A DNA stretch of 64,000 nucleotides. Source: a virus. The notes under the pieces were generated by a model. It was not told the DNA's origin. It made no database searches and saw only the letters and a program-made list of their open reading frames with translations. A program made the translations under genes and the position numbers. Shown here piece after piece: positions 1-10,546 of this stretch; position 1 is the stretch's first letter; every line of letters begins with the position of its first letter. Location of the stretch: the IMG/VR virus record IMGVR_UViG_3300008108_004834, positions 1 to 64,000 of that record; one strand, written 5' to 3'.

Positions 1-95
1 TGAGAATAAATCTCAACAACATCGTATCTTTCCGCAGGACTGCTGTTGCCGTTTGAGCAATAGCACTCTGAGCGAACTGGGGAGCAATCCCCTTT
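1..95 (+). ncRNA. ssrA: tmRNA, 3' part of coding piece (probably two-piece/permuted type; 5' part outside window)
   Basis: 12-56 reads LNNIVSFRRTAVAV*, resembling cyanobacterial ANNIV(S/R/P)F... tags; stop codon lies in the loop of hairpin 41-49/57-65; ends in GGGGA-GCAA-TCCCC hairpin; no T-arm/acceptor follows. Confidence 0.75.
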
Positions 96-98
96 CTT

Positions 99-171
99 GT
101 CCGTGTAGCCCAATGGAAGAGGCAATAGACTAAGGATCTATTTGTTGGAGGTTCGATTCCTCTCACGGACA
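99..171 (+). tRNA. tRNA-Leu(AAG), short variable loop
   Basis: GTCCGTG/CACGGAC acceptor, ATAGA-CT-AAG-GA-TCTAT, TTCGATT T-loop, A73. Confidence 0.9.
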
Positions 172-200
172 TTGACTTTCTTGAGTATCTCTGGTATTCT
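172..200 (+). promoter_or_regulatory. sigma70-like promoter
   Basis: TTGACT-17nt-TATTCT upstream of tRNA-Leu(TAG). Confidence 0.55.
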
Positions 201-211
201 AAAAGTCTTAT

Positions 212-284
212 GGGAGTGTAGCCCAACGGCAGAGGCGGTAGGCTTAGAACCTATACAGTGGAGGTTCAAATCCTCTCACTCCTA
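212..284 (+). tRNA. tRNA-Leu(TAG), short variable loop
   Basis: GGGAGTG/CACTCCT acceptor, GTAGG-CT-TAG-AA-CCTAT. Confidence 0.9.
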
Positions 285-285
285 T

Positions 286-342
286 TGCCAGTTTCTTGAC
301 TGGCACAAGGCACTTGACTCTTCGGTTCAAATGCCTTATATT
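286..342 (+). promoter_or_regulatory. 20-bp dyad plus sigma70-like promoter of HNH gene
   Basis: TGCCAGTT-TCTT-GACTGGCA then TTGACT-17nt-TATATT. Confidence 0.55.
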
Positions 343-384
343 AGATGAGTGGTTGAGTTCTATTAAACGCATTTATTATGTAAA

Positions 385-804
385 ATGGTCATTTGTAAAT
401 CCTGCGGTAAAGAAGTTCCACAACACCCCAAAAAAGGTGGAAGAGCAAAACTTTATTGTGACGAAACTTGCCGCCAAAAGTGGCGTTACAGAAATGATCC
501 ATCTATTATGAATAGAAACACTTACACTGAACAAAAAGAAAGAGCATATTCCAACAAATGGAAAACACTTCAATATAAAGGTGGTAAGTGCCAACAATGT
601 GGCGAAGATAGACCAGCAACTTTATGCTTTCATCATAGAGATCCTTCTCAAAAAGAACTAAAACTTGATGGAAGATCTTTTGCAAATAGAAAATGGGAAA
701 CTATTAAAGAAGAAGTAGATAAATGCGATCTTCTTTGCCATAACTGTCATCATATATTACATTATGGCAACAGTTGGGGAGAGTTTCTACAAACGCTGGT
801 TTAG
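385..804 (+). CDS. HNH endonuclease (putative homing endonuclease) with N-terminal Zn finger
   Basis: CKSC...YCDETC; CQQC...FHHRDP...CDLLCHNCH motifs. Confidence 0.8.
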   Translation: MVICKSCGKEVPQHPKKGGRAKLYCDETCRQKWRYRNDPSIMNRNTYTEQKERAYSNKWKTLQYKGGKCQQCGEDRPATLCFHHRDPSQKELKLDGRSFANRKWETIKEEVDKCDLLCHNCHHILHYGNSWGEFLQTLV

Positions 805-867
805 CTCTCTGGCGAAAGCACTGCCCTCATAAGGCAAGATAGGTCGGTTCGATCCCGACAACCAGCA
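795..867 (+). tRNA. tRNA-Met(CAT) (elongator Met or Ile2)
   Basis: GCTGGTT/AACCAGC acceptor, CT-CAT-AA loop, TTCGATC. Confidence 0.85.
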
Positions 868-868
868 C

Positions 869-897
869 TTGACAATCTCAGTGATATATACTATGAT
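869..897 (+). promoter_or_regulatory. sigma70-like promoter
   Basis: TTGACA-17nt-TATGAT. Confidence 0.65.
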
Positions 898-910
898 TGT
901 CTTGGTTTAA

Positions 911-983
911 GGGAGTGTAGCCCAGCGGAAGAGGCAGTGGACTTAAAATCCATACAGGGTGGGTTCGAATCCCACCACTCCTA
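911..983 (+). tRNA. tRNA-Leu(TAA), short variable loop
   Basis: GGGAGTG/CACTCCT, GTGGA-CT-TAA-AA-TCCAT. Confidence 0.9.
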
Positions 984-987
984 CTTT

Positions 988-1061
988 GCCGAAGTAATCC
1001 AATTGGTAGAGGTGTCCGACTCAAAATCGGAATGTTGTGGGTTCGAATCCCACCTTCGGTA
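988..1061 (+). tRNA. tRNA-Leu(CAA), short variable loop
   Basis: GCCGAAG/CTTCGGT, TCCGA-CT-CAA-AA-TCGGA. Confidence 0.9.
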
Positions 1062-1083
1062 TTGGAGAGTAATCTCCACAATT

Positions 1084-1171
1084 GCCAGTCAGAACAGGTG
1101 TTCAGAGGAGTCTTATAAACTCTTTCCGCCAGATTAGCGGCTTTGGGAGGGTTCGATACCCTCGGCTGGTA
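1084..1171 (+). tRNA. non-canonical tRNA-Ile(TAT) with long variable arm and minimal D-arm
   Basis: GCCAGTC/GGCTGGT, GAAC-AGGT-GTTC, AGGAGT-CT-TAT-AA-ACTCTT, V-arm CCGC/GCGG, GAGGG-TTCGATA-CCCTC. Confidence 0.8.
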
Positions 1172-1280
1172 TTCCATCGGCAGATGGAAAGGCGAATTTG
1201 AGTGATGCATCACTTAGACAAGCCTGGAACAATTATCTAAGGTTCGATTCCCTGGCTCTGGTGAGTTAGATAAAAGTTCC
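1172..1280 (+). ncRNA. unassigned structured RNA: three stems, the last capped by T-loop then D-loop-like elements
   Basis: 1172-78/1183-89; 1190-93/1222-25 and 1197-1205/1210-18; 1226-30/1276-80 and 1233-40/1266-73 enclosing GG-TTCGATT-CC and TGGCTC-TGGT-GAG. Confidence 0.55.
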
Positions 1281-1290
1281 TGAATTTCTT

Positions 1291-1363
1291 ATCAGAGTAG
1301 CTCAATTGGTAGAGCAGCGGTCTCCAAAACTGAAGGTTGCAGGTTCAAGTCCTGTCTCTGGTG
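1291..1363 (+). tRNA. tRNA-Trp(CCA)
   Basis: cloverleaf, CT-CCA-AA, G73. Confidence 0.9.
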
Positions 1364-1367
1364 CCTT

Positions 1368-1439
1368 GCCCTGGTAACTCAGTGGAAGAGTGCTTCGCTA
1401 CGAACGAAGAAGACGGGGGTTCGAATCCCTCTCAGGGTG
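1368..1439 (+). tRNA. tRNA-Arg(ACG)
   Basis: CTTCG-CT-ACG-AA-CGAAG. Confidence 0.9.
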
Positions 1440-1473
1440 CTTGACTTTGAAAAAAGTCATATATATAAAGAAT

Positions 1474-1558
1474 GGAAGGGCAATCCGATTGGCGACGGAA
1501 CCTGTCTTGAAAACAGTTGAGTGTAAAAGCCTTGGGGGTTCGACTCCCCCTCCTTCCG
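1474..1558 (+). tRNA. tRNA-Ser(TGA)
   Basis: GGAAGGG/TCCTTCC, CT-TGA-AA, long variable region, G73. Confidence 0.9.
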
Positions 1559-1577
1559 TTGCTCCTTGTGAGCATAT

Positions 1578-1651
1578 GCCTCCGTAGCTCAGCTGGATAG
1601 AGCAGGGTTTTTGTAAAGCTCAGGTCGCAAGTTCAAGTCTTGTCGGGGGCT
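1578..1651 (+). tRNA. tRNA-Thr(TGT)
   Basis: GCCTCCG/CGGGGGC, TT-TGT-AA. Confidence 0.9.
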
Positions 1652-1679
1652 TGACAATCTAAGATGAATGTCTTATGAT
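1651..1679 (+). promoter_or_regulatory. sigma70-like promoter
   Basis: TTGACA-17nt-TATGAT. Confidence 0.65.
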
Positions 1680-1687
1680 TGTTAGAT

Positions 1688-1759
1688 GCGGATTTAATTC
1701 AGTGGTAGAATGGCTGCCTTCCAAGCAGTTCGTCAGGGGTTCGAATCCCCTAATCCGCT
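1688..1759 (+). tRNA. tRNA-Gly(TCC)
   Basis: GCGGATT/AATCCGC, CT-TCC-AA, U73. Confidence 0.9.
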
Positions 1760-1781
1760 CTTGGAGTTTAACTCCAATTTA

Positions 1782-1856
1782 TGTGGGGAAGTGTAGTGGT
1801 TGCACAGGAGTCTCATAAGCTCCAGGTTGGTGGTTCGATTCCGCCCCCCGCCACCA
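1782..1856 (+). tRNA. tRNA-Met(CAT), initiator-like 1:72 mismatch, encoded CCA
   Basis: TGTGGGG/CCCCGCC-A-CCA, GGAGT-CT-CAT-AA-GCTCC. Confidence 0.8.
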
Positions 1857-1860
1857 ACAT

Positions 1861-1933
1861 TCCCTTATAGCTCAATTGGCAGAGCACGGAGCTGTTAACT
1901 CTGGGGTTCCTGGTTCGAGTCCAGGTGGGGGAG
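1861..1933 (+). tRNA. tRNA-Asn(GTT)
   Basis: TCCCTTA/TGGGGGA, CT-GTT-AA, G73. Confidence 0.9.
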
Positions 1934-1949
1934 TCGGTAGAAATACCAA

Positions 1950-2021
1950 CCTCTGGTAGTCTATTGGTAAGGACAGGCAGACAATGCACTTGGAAACTAG
2001 GTTCGATTCCTAGACAGGGGA
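1950..2021 (+). ncRNA. tRNA-like element with aberrant anticodon arm
   Basis: acceptor CCTCTG/CAGGGG, D-arm GTCT/GGAC, T-arm CTAGG-TTCGATT-CCTAG; anticodon arm only GCA-GACAA-TGC. Confidence 0.6.
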
Positions 2022-2024
2022 AAT

Positions 2025-2096
2025 GGGCGATTAACTCAGCGGTAGAGTGCCTCCTTTACACGGAGATGGTCACTGGTTCGAATCCAGTATCGCCCA
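2025..2096 (+). tRNA. tRNA-Val(TAC)
   Basis: GGGCGAT/ATCGCCC, TT-TAC-AC. Confidence 0.9.
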
Positions 2097-2100
2097 CTTA

Positions 2101-2108
2101 TATAAATA
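2101..2108 (+). promoter_or_regulatory. T4-type late promoter
   Basis: TATAAATA 20 nt upstream of dps. Confidence 0.7.
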
Positions 2109-2127
2109 CTTCAAAAAAAGAAGTATA

Positions 2128-2562
2128 ATGGAAAAACTGTATAAATTACTTAGTGATGTTCAGTCATCACTTTTTGTTTTGTTTCATAAAACTTGGGTAT
2201 TCCATTGGAATGTGGTTGGGGAAGATTTCACTCAACTACATCAACTCTTTGGTGGTCAATACGAAACAATGTTTGAAGAGATTGATCGTCTCTCTGAACA
2301 TATGAGATACTTAAATATTAAACCTCTGAGTTCCCTTTCAAGAATGCTTGAAGTAACTCAGATTCAAGAAGCAGCAAGTTCAACTACATCAGATTCTATG
2401 ATTACTGAACTTTTAGAGAATAATAATAAACTTTGTGAATTGTTGTCTGATATTTCAGAAGAAGCAGAATCTCAAAAGTCTTATGCAACTGCGAATCTTG
2501 TTCAAGACTTGATGGAATCTCACGGAAAATTTATTTGGCAATTAAGATCACATTTACAATGA
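2128..2562 (+). CDS. dps: Dps/ferritin-like DNA protection protein
   Basis: KTWVFHWNVVGEDFTQLHQLF...EEIDRLSEH Dps signature; start moved to ATG 2128 because the upstream part is tRNA-Val. Confidence 0.9.
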   Translation: MEKLYKLLSDVQSSLFVLFHKTWVFHWNVVGEDFTQLHQLFGGQYETMFEEIDRLSEHMRYLNIKPLSSLSRMLEVTQIQEAASSTTSDSMITELLENNNKLCELLSDISEEAESQKSYATANLVQDLMESHGKFIWQLRSHLQ

Positions 2563-2575
2563 AAGGATTAGTAAA

Positions 2576-2827
2576 ATGATTTCAATAAGATGCAAAGATT
2601 GCAATAAAGAATTATCAGGAAATAATACAAAGATTGCTTCCTGTGGTTGCCCGAATATGGCAACAATTAATGGAGATAAAATCTCTGCGGTTGATTTGTC
2701 TCGTATTGTAATGTTAAATTCACTTCAGACAAAAGCAAAATCTTCAGTTCTCACAAATGATGACATTATGTGGCAAGAACAACGTCGCCAACGTAAAGTA
2801 AAGAGATTAGATTTTGAAGTTCGTTGA
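2576..2827 (+). CDS. conserved cyanophage hypothetical (Zn-binding CxxC/CxC)
   Basis: ORF with RBS; CKDC...CGCPN. Confidence 0.65.
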   Translation: MISIRCKDCNKELSGNNTKIASCGCPNMATINGDKISAVDLSRIVMLNSLQTKAKSSVLTNDDIMWQEQRRQRKVKRLDFEVR

Positions 2828-2969
2828 GAACTTTTAGAATCCAATATTTGTAGGTCTTTTTTGGTAATTAATGATACCAATACTTTGTTAATGTTATAGA
2901 ATAAACATAAAATATTAACGTCTTGGTATTGGATATTATTATATAATAGTAATCTATCTAAAAAATCAA

Positions 2970-3119
2970 ATGGACCAACATACTTACGATAATTGGGTCC
3001 GTATTAAAGAGACTTTTGAAAAGTCTGGAAATACCAATAATATGTTTTATAAGAGAGCGTGTGAGATTATAAAAACTAAAAGAGACCCATTGGCAAAATT
3101 TCTTGGAGATGAAAAGTGA
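2970..3119 (+). CDS. small hypothetical protein
   Basis: MDQHTYDNWVRIKETFEKSG..., read from sequence; coupled to next ORF. Confidence 0.55.
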   Translation: MDQHTYDNWVRIKETFEKSGNTNNMFYKRACEIIKTKRDPLAKFLGDEK

Positions 3120-3319
3120 CGAAAACACAAGATGAATTGATTACTCGTTTTGAAGTTCAGGAGATGATTGATGCAGCAATACGAAGACATAACCGCAATG
3201 CTTCTATCATTAGTATGTGCGTCGGTTGGGTGGTGCTTGCTCTATTTGCTGAGGGACTATTAAGACTTATTGGTGTTATTCCACCACTATTACCCTGGCT
3301 CAAAATTACTTTAAACTAA
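3116..3319 (+). CDS. small membrane protein
   Basis: hydrophobic C-terminal segment. Confidence 0.6.
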   Translation: MTKTQDELITRFEVQEMIDAAIRRHNRNASIISMCVGWVVLALFAEGLLRLIGVIPPLLPWLKITLN

Positions 3320-3620
3320 TGGTTCACATTACAGAAGAAGACATAAAAGATCTTTTGCAAAGAGTATTCTTCAAAAAAATGGAAGAACTCTTTGAAGAAC
3401 CATCAACATACGAGGACGAAGAAGATGTTTAAAACAGTCTTGACAGTAGCAGTCATATATACTACAATTATTGGGTTATGGATCATCACATATCCGCAAT
3501 GATTTTTCGCATCGTAGAAGCATTAGCAGCAAATCCATTTTTCCTTTTTCTTTGTGGATTTGGATTGACAATTGTTCCTTTTCTTGGTATTATGTACATA
3601 CATTCAAAAGAAACAGACTC

Positions 3621-3694
3621 CGGGCATTAGCGCAGTTTGGTAGCGCGTTCCGTTTGGGGCGGAAAGGTCATAAGTTCAAATCTTATATGCCCGA
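3621..3694 (+). tRNA. tRNA-Pro(TGG)
   Basis: CGGGCAT/ATGCCCG, TT-TGG-GG. Confidence 0.9.
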
Positions 3695-3711
3695 CTCATA
3701 AAACTTACTTT

Positions 3712-3945
3712 ATGAAAATGAATCAAGAACTAGAAGAACTTCAAACATTTACAATAGAAAGATTTCAAGAAAATTTTGATACTCTAATGAATAGAGTTGA
3801 AAATGGAGAATCTTTTGTCATAACAAGTAAGCACGGAAATGCAGTTATAGTTCCTTATAATGAAGTAGTACGTGTATGTGAAGAAACGGATATTGACTTT
3901 GATGAAATAGTCAAAATCCATACAGACCACGAAGAGGCATCTTAA
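3712..3945 (+). CDS. Phd/YefM-like antitoxin-fold protein
   Basis: FTIERFQENFDTLMNRVENGESFVITSKHGNAVIVP resembles Phd N-domain; acidic tail. Confidence 0.55.
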   Translation: MKMNQELEELQTFTIERFQENFDTLMNRVENGESFVITSKHGNAVIVPYNEVVRVCEETDIDFDEIVKIHTDHEEAS

Positions 3946-3971
3946 CAAAACAGTTTATCTCTGGTCTTTTG

Positions 3972-4023
3972 GGACACTTCCTAAAGTGTCCTACTTGACT
4001 TTCGAAAGTCAACACCCTATAAT
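3972..4023 (+). promoter_or_regulatory. dyad plus sigma70-like promoter
   Basis: GGACACTT-CCTA-AAGTGTCC, TTGACT-17nt-TATAAT. Confidence 0.65.
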
Positions 4024-4045
4024 AACAAGGTCAACAATCAAAACA

Positions 4046-4261
4046 ATGACTCTCACTGCCAAATTTAAGAAAGACGTTCAAACCCTTCGTGGTGCTGCTA
4101 ATGGCGATTTCTACCTTGATGTAAAGAATCCGAAACTTTATAAAAAAGTTCGTCGTTATTATGAGAATGAAGGTGTAGTGTTCTCTGGTGATCCTCTGGA
4201 TGATTATGAAATGCTTATGGAATACGTTCTCTCCGATCTTGAAACTGTTGAGGTTGCATGA
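4046..4261 (+). CDS. conserved cyanophage hypothetical
   Basis: LDVKNPKLYKKVRRYYENEGV motif typical of cyanomyophage/cyanobacterial small proteins. Confidence 0.7.
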   Translation: MTLTAKFKKDVQTLRGAANGDFYLDVKNPKLYKKVRRYYENEGVVFSGDPLDDYEMLMEYVLSDLETVEVA

Positions 4262-4503
4262 GCACCAAAGTTATCCTAGAGCGAGAAGGATTCCGATTTG
4301 TTGAAAAGGGAATTATTGAACTTAACGGCAAACCTGATTATCGCCTTCAAATGCAGGATTATTATTCTAAAAAATGGAATGATGTTTATCTGTTTGACAA
4401 TTCCATGCAATGCTCTCTTGCAATGGAAGACATTGAATATGCCAAATGGTTAACAGATCAACCCTGCTACATTGATGAAAGTGACATTGAGGATTGGGAA
4501 TAA
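4258..4503 (+). CDS. conserved cyanophage hypothetical
   Basis: overlapping ATGA coupling; NGKPDYRLQ motif. Confidence 0.7.
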   Translation: MSTKVILEREGFRFVEKGIIELNGKPDYRLQMQDYYSKKWNDVYLFDNSMQCSLAMEDIEYAKWLTDQPCYIDESDIEDWE

Positions 4504-4533
4504 ATAGTCTGCAACGACTAAAATTGTGTAAGT

Positions 4534-4773
4534 ATGCCCAATACACATATATCCAAAACAAGTGTATTGAGATATATTGGCAATTTGTTCCTGATAATTG
4601 GATATCAAACCATGCTATGGGGAGATTTCAAATATGGTTTAATGTTAAAAGTTGTTGGAGGATTACTTACAGTACCTTTTGCAATTAAACTTAAACTTTG
4701 GGATGTATTATTCTTATGTGCATTCTTTGGAGTTAGTGAGGTTACTAAACTAATTCAACTTTTCTTGGTTTAG
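4534..4773 (+). CDS. small multi-pass membrane protein
   Basis: three hydrophobic segments. Confidence 0.55.
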   Translation: MPNTHISKTSVLRYIGNLFLIIGYQTMLWGDFKYGLMLKVVGGLLTVPFAIKLKLWDVLFLCAFFGVSEVTKLIQLFLV

Positions 4774-4802
4774 TAAAACCAAGTGGTGGAGTCAATGACC
4801 CT
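4756..4802 (+). ncRNA. wcaG/manA-like RNA motif module (tentative)
   Basis: ACT-TTT-CTTGGTTT-AGTA-AAACCAAG-TGGTGGA-GTC-AAT-GAC; located just upstream of gmd-fcl(wcaG). Confidence 0.35.
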
Positions 4803-4814
4803 TTATTACTGTTG

Positions 4815-4842
4815 AGACGGGTTGCATAAATCCGTCTTTTTT
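4815..4842 (+). terminator. intrinsic terminator
   Basis: AGACGG...CCGTCT hairpin followed by T run. Confidence 0.6.
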
Positions 4843-4870
4843 AGTATAATACGAAAAAAATATATCACAT

Positions 4871-5872
4871 ATGAAAAGAGCATTAATTACTGGCATCACG
4901 GGCCAGGATGGATCATATCTTGCTGAACTTCTTTTGATAAAAGGATATGAAGTTCATGGTATTGTTAGAAGGTCTTCTTTAATCAATACCCATAGAATTG
5001 ACCATATATACAATCAAATTAAACTTCATTATGGAGATCTTACAGATTCTACAAATCTTGTAAGAATCATTCAACAAGTTCAACCAGATGAAATTTATAA
5101 TCTTGGTGCCCAGAGTCATGTAAAGGTTTCTTTTGAAATGCCAGAATACACTGGTATGGTTGATGGTCTCGGAACACTTCGCATTCTTGAAGCAGTCCGT
5201 CTTTTGGGAATGGAAAAGAAAACAAGAATCTATCAGGCATCCACTTCTGAGATGTTTGGTAAGGTCCAAGAGATTCCACAGACAGAAACCACACCTTTTT
5301 ATCCCCGTTCACCTTATGGAGTTGCAAAAGTTTATGGATACTGGATCATCAAAAACTACAGAGAATCATATGGACTACATGCAAGTTCTGGAATTCTTTT
5401 CAATCACGAATCCCCTAGAAGAGGAGAAACTTTTGTCACAAGAAAAATCACTCAAGGATTATCACGCATTTCAACTGGGGAACAAGATATACTATATCTC
5501 GGGAATCTGAACGCAAAACGCGACTGGGGACACGCTAAGGACTTCGTAGAGGCGATGTGGTTGATGCTGCAGCAGGAAACCGCCGATGACTATGTAATTG
5601 CCACTGGGGAGCAGTATTCCGTGAAAGATTTTGTTGAAGCAGCAGCACCTTATTTTGGAATAGATATCATTTGGGTAAATGAGGGTCTTAATGAATATGG
5701 TATGGATAAGAATACTATGAAACCCATTATCAAGGTTGATCCTAAATATTTTCGACCTGCTGAAGTAGAGACCTTATTAGGTGATGCCACTAAGGCAAAA
5801 CAAAAATTGGGTTGGCAACCTAAAATTTCATTTGAAGAATTAGTTGAGGAAATGTGTAAGAATGAATCTTGA
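4871..5872 (+). CDS. gmd: GDP-mannose 4,6-dehydratase
   Basis: [37 protein letters not shown]. Confidence 0.97.
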
Positions 5873-8968: not shown

Positions 8969-9978
8969 AACAAATACTACACATTTCTCATCACATTGGA
9001 TGTTTTAGAGATCAAGAATATATTTTAAATAAACTTGGATTTGAAGTTACTAATCACAAATTTTACGACAACGTATTTCAAATCACCGAAGAAGTTGCCA
9101 ATGATTTTTGGAAAAATCATAAAGACCAGTTGAATGATTTTGATTATATTTTGACATCAGATACTGCCCCCCTATCAAGAATTTTTCTTGAGAATCAGGA
9201 AGAATTTAACGGAAAACTTGTGATTTGGGTGTGTAATAGATTTGATTATCGGATGGAATCTGAAACAAAATTTTATGAATTGTTTAGTAAAGCGGAACAG
9301 AATTCTAATATTAAAATAGTACCTTACAGTCATTTTGAAAAGGTATGGTGTACACAAAAAGGAACAAACCTAATGAGTCACCAACACATCAAACCGTGCG
9401 GAATTAATTTAAATAAAAATGAGGGTAATATACCAGAGGCCGCATACTTCAAAGAAATGTATGGCGAAGATTGTCAATTACCTGATGCCGATGTAATTGT
9501 TCCGATTTATCATAATGATAACAACTTTTTTGGAATGAGTGATTTTCTAAAACAAAAGGGAATAGGAGTTTATAATGGTGCATTTAGGACAATAGACCAA
9601 TTAAAAAAATATAAAGCATTTGTTCATCTTCCGGATGCGTTCTCAAAATTTCTTTGTTTTGAATTGATACACTCACATATCCCGGCAATTCTGCCATCAA
9701 AAAATTTTCTCTACGAATTATCAAAAAAACCAAATTATTTTTTCAATATTTGGGGATCCGGTGGTGCAAATCTTTTGGAAAAAGAATGGATATCTTGGTG
9801 TGAATGGTATGACCCCGAACTTACTAAATGTAGATTTTACTACGATTCTTTTGATGAAATTCCGTTGATTATTAATTCTATTGATAAAGAATCAATGCAT
9901 GATGAGTTTGAAAGGTGTTCTAAATATCTGGAGAACGATACTTTTTATAAATGGAAAGCTTTTTATGATAACTTTTGA
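8965..9978 (+). CDS. hypothetical, probable GT-B glycosyltransferase
   Basis: context; YKAFVHLP-like C-terminal motif. Confidence 0.5.
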   Translation: MKQILHISHHIGCFRDQEYILNKLGFEVTNHKFYDNVFQITEEVANDFWKNHKDQLNDFDYILTSDTAPLSRIFLENQEEFNGKLVIWVCNRFDYRMESETKFYELFSKAEQNSNIKIVPYSHFEKVWCTQKGTNLMSHQHIKPCGINLNKNEGNIPEAAYFKEMYGEDCQLPDADVIVPIYHNDNNFFGMSDFLKQKGIGVYNGAFRTIDQLKKYKAFVHLPDAFSKFLCFELIHSHIPAILPSKNFLYELSKKPNYFFNIWGSGGANLLEKEWISWCEWYDPELTKCRFYYDSFDEIPLIINSIDKESMHDEFERCSKYLENDTFYKWKAFYDNF

Positions 9979-10546
9979 TAAAGATTTTTTTGAACAAGAA
10001 TATACAAATGCCCTCAATACTCCATCTCACATAAATGAACATTTACCAATCCTTAGAGAATTGGCAAACAAATGCGATCATGTAACAGAAATGGGAGTTC
10101 ATGAGGGAATTAGTACTAGAGCATTTTTATGCGAAGACGTAGTTCTTAGGTGCTATGACCTCATTCATTATCCACAAATAACGAATTTGATCAATATTGC
10201 CAAAGAATCTGGAAAGGATATTGAGTATGTTAAGGATGATGTTTTAAATATTTCCATAGAAGAAACAGATTTGCTTTTTATAGATACTTGGCATGTATAT
10301 GAGCATTTAAAAGAGGAACTGAAACTTCATTCCTCCAAAGTGAAAAAATACTTAGTATTCCATGATACTCAGACGTTTGGTACAAGTGGGCACGATACAA
10401 GTATGACTTCTTACTATGGAGGAAAAGTTGGAACTTTAGGATTACTTCCTGCTATAATTGAATTTGTTATTGATCATCCAGAATGGAAATTTAAAATACA
10501 TAAAACAAATAATAACGGATTAACGGTATTAGAGAAAACAAAATGA
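9965..10546 (+). CDS. class I SAM methyltransferase (Methyltransf_24-like)
   Basis: EMGVHEGIST, DLLFIDTWH, VFHDT. Confidence 0.8.
   Translation: MITFDKDFFEQEYTNALNTPSHINEHLPILRELANKCDHVTEMGVHEGISTRAFLCEDVVLRCYDLIHYPQITNLINIAKESGKDIEYVKDDVLNISIEETDLLFIDTWHVYEHLKEELKLHSSKVKKYLVFHDTQTFGTSGHDTSMTSYYGGKVGTLGLLPAIIEFVIDHPEWKFKIHKTNNNGLTVLEKTK

Follow-up and report, generated by a model that had tools for sequence, protein, structure and literature searches.

Probable 3′ end of a miniature, circularly permuted tmRNA gene in the tRNA array of a cyanomyophage

The window analyzed here is the whole 64,000-nucleotide stretch formed by positions 1 to 64,000 of IMG/VR virus record IMGVR_UViG_3300008108_004834, and its position 1 is the first base of a 79.8-kb viral contig that is estimated to be 38% complete. 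At this end of the contig, the motif AATAAAT (positions 5 to 11) directly precedes a CTC codon (12 to 14), the first of 14 sense codons (12 to 53) that read LNNIVSFRRTAVAV and are followed by a TGA stop codon (54 to 56). RNAfold places the stop codon in the 7-nt loop (50 to 56) of a 9-bp helix (41 to 49 paired with 57 to 65), prolongs this core by two further segments (37 to 39 with 67 to 69 and 33 to 35 with 72 to 74), and predicts a 5-bp hairpin with a GCAA loop at 79 to 92; the minimum free energy of the fold is −32.8 kcal/mol (z = −3.5 relative to shuffles). The resume motif, the tag frame, the helix with the stop codon in its loop, the GCAA hairpin, and the tRNA-Leu gene that comes after them are present as an earlier note on this DNA had described them.

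The terminal hairpin and its tail are terminator-like, close the coding piece on its 3′ side, and directly abut the next tRNA gene, within 3.7 kb of which ARAGORN finds 13 more tRNAs. Because psbA and the genes for a T4-type baseplate hub and tail proteins lie in the window, the phage can be assigned to the cyanomyophages. In the reading that we regard as probable, positions 1 to 97 form the 3′-terminal part of a tmRNA gene that is circularly permuted (two-piece), resembles the picocyanobacterial type, and is encoded by a cyanomyophage; it has a miniature form of ca. 195 nt and is part of the phage tRNA array. tmRNA is the RNA that frees stalled ribosomes. The features are collected in Table 1.

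Table 1. Features at the start of the window
Feature	Positions	Strand	Basis or remarks
3′ part of the single-stranded pre-resume linker, UGAGAAUAAAU	1..11	+	Sequence; A at −4, U at −5
Tag reading frame with CTC (Leu) resume codon, LNNIVSFRRTAVAV, stop TGA 54-56	12..56	+	Sequence; alleles of relatives
Helix 5-like stem, stop codon in the loop of the 9-bp core	33..74	+	RNAfold; compensatory changes
Terminal hairpin GGGGA-GCAA-UCCCC and U-rich tail	79..97	+	Matches the last RF01851 hairpin
Neighboring tRNA-Leu(AAG)	98..172	+	ARAGORN

As the contig starts at base 1, the window includes neither the remainder of the coding piece nor any of the acceptor piece, and the tRNA-like domain has no representation in it. 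Related loci (given here as L numbers) supply these parts. A 20-mer taken from the tag, starting just after the CTC, matched 22 viral contigs, and the whole gene of ca. 195 nt was found directly after a tRNA gene in at least about 30 related viral and metagenome contigs. The earlier note had proposed that an acceptor piece should be sought in the upstream DNA, and in the relatives it lies there; it is present in the near-identical L106 and L415 (ca. 94 to 96% identical to window 1 to 100) and in about 30 other contigs. The note had also remarked that no acceptor half follows downstream, which is to be expected, as a permuted gene carries this half upstream. In all contigs that extend upstream, the element occupies a gap of ca. 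195 nt that starts at the last base of the upstream tRNA (Gln in most contigs, Ala or Met in three divergent ones) and is limited on its 3′ side by the next tRNA or by a U-run. A metagenome scan yielded at least 4 true copies, the matches listed being mostly chance, and the matches listed in viral scans with a generic T-arm pattern or an AT-rich resume motif were mostly unrelated DNA and were sifted by script.

The first parts of the full-length gene are, in order, a 6- to 7-bp hairpin, the 3′ strand of helix 2, and a T-arm (GGGG-UUCGACU-CCCC), after which come the acceptor 3′ strand, CAUCUCC, and the discriminator A (A73); CCA is not encoded. A spacer of 5 to 6 nt separates the acceptor 3′ strand from the coding piece, which opens with GGGGAUG, the acceptor 5′ strand, and thereby forms the pairs G1-C72, G2-C71, and G3·U70. 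This is followed by the tmRNA D-loop analogue AACUGGUAUUCGAC (a D-loop-like motif, ...GGUAUUCGAC, is present in all copies), by GGGCAGA as the 5′ strand of helix 2, by 17 unpaired bases ending in AAUAAAU, and then by the tag. The linker motif (UGAGAAUAAAU) is invariant across all full-length relatives, and 18 of the 18 aligned full-length relatives have the 7-bp acceptor stem with G3·U70, A73, and the T-arm with its T-loop. An acceptor piece upstream, a short spacer, and a coding piece that starts with GGGG together make up the arrangement of a circularly permuted gene, and the tRNA-like domain and permuted order of the relatives support the earlier proposal that the phage carries a two-piece tmRNA of its own. 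At one locus (L021:8312-8511), an aberrant T-loop, GGCAGUA, occurs together with an altered D-loop analogue, AAAUAGAAUCGAC; the two changes may reflect co-variation of the T-loop/D-loop contact.

It might be argued that the gene is truly truncated in this phage (i.e., that the window carries a deletion allele) and is not merely cut by the contig end, particularly as a second contig, L012, ends at exactly the same base. However, the contig is a fragment, estimated to be 38% complete, that physically stops at position 1, with no DNA upstream of it that could reveal a junction, and other contigs (L025 and L465) also break inside the tRNA-like region. We therefore regard a true truncation as very improbable. 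If the gene is whole in this phage, the upstream sequence would be expected to read ...GGGCAGAGGGTT, and then to continue into the tRNA-like domain.

Two checks that the earlier note had suggested, the Rfam cyano_tmRNA model and ARAGORN, gave a mixed picture. The full gene of the relatives aligns end to end with RF01851 (cyano_tmRNA), over model positions 1 to 288, with 48.3 bits (E = 2.7e-12), which supports its assignment as a tmRNA, but the gathering cut-off of 70 is not reached. Its score against RF04321 (tmRNA_permuted) is 39 bits (E = 1.5e-6), below the cut-off of 47, and an Rfam search of window 1 to 5000 gave no match at 1 to 95. ARAGORN failed to call the mini form as a tmRNA in the window and in 20 related loci, and the calls that it made on L148 and L387 are in the wrong frame. 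The Rfam scores fall below the cut-offs because 19 model positions of pseudoknot 1 are reduced to 1 nt, and a block of 38 positions after helix 5 is reduced to 9 nt. Pseudoknot 1, which would lie between helix 2 and the resume codon, is thus absent from the Rfam alignment. When the linker AGAGGGUU was compared by eye with the tail and the hairpin loops, no replacement pseudoknot was seen, there being no pairing common to L004, L019, and L148; nor, again by eye, is a GAGA/UCUC hairpin over the resume codon conserved across these three loci.

A covariance model (R1) was made from 16 distinct aligned copies with a nested structure of 47 pairs, and all collected loci were searched with it. Its positions 100 to 200 match window 1 to 101 with 121.2 bits (E = 5e-29), a match that is flagged as cut at the 5′ end and is far beyond chance. 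After realignment of 18 full-length sequences, including S-CRM01 and one chromosomal copy, standard pairs were found in 97.7% of cells, as opposed to 45 to 50% when the partners were slid by 1 to 3 columns. In this alignment, 32 of the 47 pairs show changes on both sides, and none of 500 shuffles reached the observed values; fitting the alignment to the model favors the structure, but the margin is large. Compensatory changes are present in all seven helices, and G1-C72, G2-C71, G3·U70, and G4-C69 are invariant in 18 of 18 sequences. In the helix 5-like stem, the window allele has AGG/UCU where most relatives have AGA/UUU (a compensatory G-C for A-U), a second compensatory pair of this stem occurs in L019, and the terminal hairpin has compensatory changes in L004, L019, L107, and L148.

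These results bear on two other explanations. The first is that the mini gene is a decaying remnant of a full-size phage tmRNA like that of S-CRM01 and has no present function, as might be suggested by its being shorter than its relatives and by the variable presence of the cassette among related phages. Compensatory changes in every helix and an invariant G3·U70 are difficult to reconcile with decay, as is the recurrence of the same architecture after different tRNAs (Gln, Ala, and Met) and in many studies, and we consider this explanation highly unlikely. In the second, a scenario that the earlier note had itself raised, the region would be where an ordinary small protein gene terminates. 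By eye, the L005-type copies, which carry the commonest allele, do have an in-frame ATG 14 codons upstream (inside GGGGATG) that would open a frame of 28 codons. However, L019, L021, L107, and L148 either lack this ATG or have a broken frame; divergent copies read GGGGATA, GGGGGTA, or GGGGTAT, with stops or a 1-nt deletion; and the region covaries as RNA helices. A conventional small open reading frame is refuted by the divergent copies, and the probability that we would still assign to it is negligible.

With regard to the tag, nine distinct alleles were collected among the relatives. In close relatives, codons 2 to 9, most of which lie outside helix 5, show only synonymous changes, of six types (AAC to AAT, ATC to ATT, GTA to GTT, TCT to TCA, TTC to TTT, and AGA to AGG), and the peptide is unchanged. 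In the divergent L148, the middle of the peptide is altered, but the L-N-N-I start and the A-V-A-V end are kept (with GTC for the last Val), and the stop codon is at the same position, although it is TAG instead of TGA. CTC precedes all 22 of the 22 matches, even though it lay outside the 20-mer query, and CUC is the resume codon in every mini copy. The tag ends in AVAV in most mini copies and in SAAA in L452; the Val end is therefore not universal, whereas the Leu start is universal among the mini copies. Apart from the SAAA end of L452, the usual Ala resume codon and two-Ala tag end are absent from the mini form.

Known tmRNAs of extreme reduction provide another way to look at this gene. 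The tRNA-like-domain-only tmRNA of mycobacteriophage DS6A and the reduced tmRNAs of organelles (PMC4131195, PMC11915505) are such cases, but they are without a tag frame, whereas the mini form keeps a constrained frame of 14 codons. It could be envisaged that the mini RNA is a decoy that binds host SmpB, AlaRS, or EF-Tu without completing trans-translation and so dampens host ribosome rescue. The loss of pseudoknot 1, the odd resume codon, and the match below the family cut-offs would suit such a role, and DS6A-like molecules that consist of the tRNA-like domain only inhibit tmRNA (PMC4131195, PMC11915505). On the other hand, a decoy would need neither a frame nor a resume context, yet the tag frame is constrained at the amino acid level, the stop keeps its position even where TGA has become TAG, and the resume context, including A at −4, persists. 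We thus think a decoy unlikely and favor a tmRNA that encodes and uses its tag.

The mini form shares much with the two-piece tmRNA of picocyanobacteria (RF01851; the Prochlorococcus, Synechococcus, and Cyanobium lineage). Both place the acceptor piece ahead of the coding piece and have in common an unencoded CCA, a short spacer, G3·U70, A73, helix 2, the U-A-A-N-U context, an NNIV.F.R tag core, a stop codon in the helix 5 loop, and a terminal hairpin. They differ in length (ca. 195 nt versus ca. 290 nt in hosts), the mini form being without two blocks, one of 19 nt (pseudoknot 1) and one of 38 nt that follows helix 5. They also differ in that the mini form has CUC rather than GCN as its resume codon and AVAV rather than VAA as its tag end, and in that it is borne by a phage, inside a tRNA array. 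Our host sample comprised 151 genomes of the class, 13 of which were above the RF01851 cut-off. The statement that cyanobacterial tags start with Ala and end with AA, made in the earlier note, agrees with 13 of 13 host tmRNAs called by ARAGORN, whose tags start with Ala (one start being a probable miscall) and end with VAA. The change of the first codon that it had reported is likewise real: Leu CUC occupies the very position of the host GCN codon and follows the same U-A-A-N-U context, which reads UAAAU in the mini form and UAACU or CAAAU before GCN in hosts. In Escherichia coli, A at −4 (A86) is the main determinant of the frame (PMC2481249). Leu does not appear among the resume residues that have been listed for known tmRNAs, namely, Ala, Gly, Asp, Arg, Ser, and Glu (PMC1168896).

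Phage two-piece tmRNAs are themselves known. Buchholz et al. (2022) counted 53 of them by ARAGORN, including those of S-CAM3, S-CBWM1, and S-SSM6a (PMC9004378). We found that S-CRM01 (NC_015569) also carries a permuted, full-size tmRNA (ca. 88.3 to 88.6 kb) that is unannotated in the record; it scores 74 bits with RF01851 and 82 bits with RF04321, and ARAGORN gives its tag end as VAAL. It has the tag ...FRRTAV and the post-stop motif CUUUGAGCG in common with the mini form. Like the mini form, the full-size tmRNAs of S-CRM01, S-CAM3, and other cyanophages are phage encoded, of the cyanobacterial type, and adjacent to tRNAs. Unlike it, they pass the Rfam cut-offs (74 to 127 bits), are called by ARAGORN, and keep the pseudoknot 1 region and an Ala resume codon. 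In other viral contigs, cyano-type tags end in PVAV, ATV, or VAA, and from the first two of these it follows that a Val end is recurrent in cyanophage tmRNAs. When the full element was compared by blastn with 50,697 phage records, only the tRNA-like domains of S-CRM01 and S-CAM3 matched and no mini form was found, and window 1 to 100 had no match among the same records. A phage tmRNA that is pseudoknot free and restarts on leucine seems to be undescribed.

In addition to a normal two-piece ssrA, one picocyanobacterial genome (G120; 2.27 Mb) carries a further permuted tmRNA, reduced to 219 nt (G120:C1:926930-927148; L387:1501-1719; L388, about 9830-10049). It scores 65.9 bits with RF01851, 61.6 bits with RF04321 (above the cut-off), and 85 bits, over the full length, with the mini model. 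Like the mini form, it is permuted and lacks the same two blocks, but its resume codon is one for Ala (GCC), its tag ends in ...AIAA, and it is chromosomal. Genes for a tyrosine integrase and a T7-like RNA polymerase lie ca. 1 kb away, and host metabolic genes start a few kilobases beyond. Possibly, the locus is an integrated element, either podovirus-like or an island, with a mini tmRNA of its own.

If the mini form functions in trans-translation, as we infer from its sequence, the following course of events can be envisaged. The tRNA array would be transcribed as a precursor and cut at the tRNA-like ends by host RNase P and 3′-end enzymes, and RNase P processing at the 5′ end of tRNA-Leu(AAG) would determine where the tmRNA coding piece ends; CCA would be added by the host CCA-adding enzyme. 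The products, an acceptor piece of ca. 60 nt and a coding piece of ca. 135 nt, would remain joined through base pairing in the acceptor stem (7 bp) and in helix 2 (8 bp). Host AlaRS would charge the molecule through G3·U70 and A73, and host SmpB and EF-Tu would deliver it to stalled ribosomes. SmpB (PF01668) was not found in the 80-kb fragment, an incomplete record, and a host SmpB is therefore presumed. Translation would restart on CUC and stop in the helix 5 loop, so that the stalled chain would gain Ala-LNNIVSFRRTAVAV. What the analysis shows for the mini form is its homology and architecture, the covariation of its helices, the constraint on the coding of its tag, and its distribution; its processing and charging, the tagging itself, and the fate of tagged proteins are inferred.

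Loss of the pseudoknots is possibly tolerated because the coding piece of a two-piece tmRNA has a free 3′ end, so that no closed ring passes around the 30S subunit; the two-piece form may in this way explain why pseudoknots are dispensable. The likely benefit to the phage would be that ribosome recycling is kept up during infection. The earlier note had speculated that the changed first codon and C terminus could alter ribosome rescue or Clp degradation during infection; a Val-ended tag would probably be a weaker or differently routed degron than the host ...PVAA. E. coli-type ssrA tags ending in AAV or ASV destabilize a reporter in Synechocystis, although less than LVA does (PMC2860132), and by analogy it is plausible that the phage tag still acts as a degron, albeit a weaker one. 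A more ambitious, and in our view doubtful, proposal is that of a self-sufficient phage module that re-tags stalled chains, works without a pseudoknot and with a resume codon whose first base is not G, has its CUC read by the phage's own tRNA-Leu(GAG/AAG), and slows or reroutes degradation through the Val end. In many copies, a tRNA-Leu(GAG/AAG) gene is immediately downstream of the mini tmRNA. The gene in the place of window 98 to 172 is tRNA-Leu(GAG) in the relatives L106, L415, and L004, whereas it is AAG here; GAG would read CUC.

If active, the mini form would be among the smallest natural tag-encoding tmRNAs (ca. 195 nt, in two pieces and pseudoknot free) and would set a natural lower bound on the requirements of trans-translation. 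It would also lend itself readily to testing, in cyanobacteria, the importance of the first tag residue and of the C-terminal Ala-Ala. Freshwater cyanomyophages commonly carry this putative ribosome rescue RNA, which standard annotation overlooks; because ARAGORN and the Rfam cut-offs miss the mini form, the counts in surveys of phage tmRNAs are underestimates.

The stretch is present in 20 public sequencing runs from 17 studies, mostly of lake or other freshwater samples. In 185,579 species genomes, an exact 18-base degenerate pattern of the resume site gave 108 matches, about the number estimated for chance, none of them with tmRNA features. Contigs from two RNA libraries cover the element (305 nt, from tRNA-Gln to tRNA-Arg, and 158 nt); DNA carry-over is possible in these contigs, from which RNA ends, strand, and level are unreadable, and they are weak evidence of transcription. 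In two other RNA libraries (junction L005:10619), tRNA-Gln is joined to a tRNA-Leu like that at window 98 to 172 with only CTC between them. Some related phages are thus without a tmRNA between tRNA-Gln and tRNA-Leu, and it follows that presence of the cassette varies and that the gene is dispensable.

The remainder of the tRNA array has some peculiarities of its own. Four tRNA-Leu genes (AAG, TAG, TAA, and CAA; window 98 to 172, 211 to 285, and 911 to 1062) are only 74 to 76 nt long and have no long variable arm. A tRNA-like match at window 1083 to 1171 scores 34 bits with the Rfam tRNA-Sec model, below its cut-off, and is not called by ARAGORN; in relatives, an 88- to 90-nt “tRNA-Ile(TAT)” is called elsewhere in the array and might be the same gene. 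Finally, window 383 to 1145, inside the array, is 87% identical to an HNH endonuclease gene of Synechococcus phage S-SRM01; it has the appearance of a mobile nuclease that was inserted between the tRNA genes.
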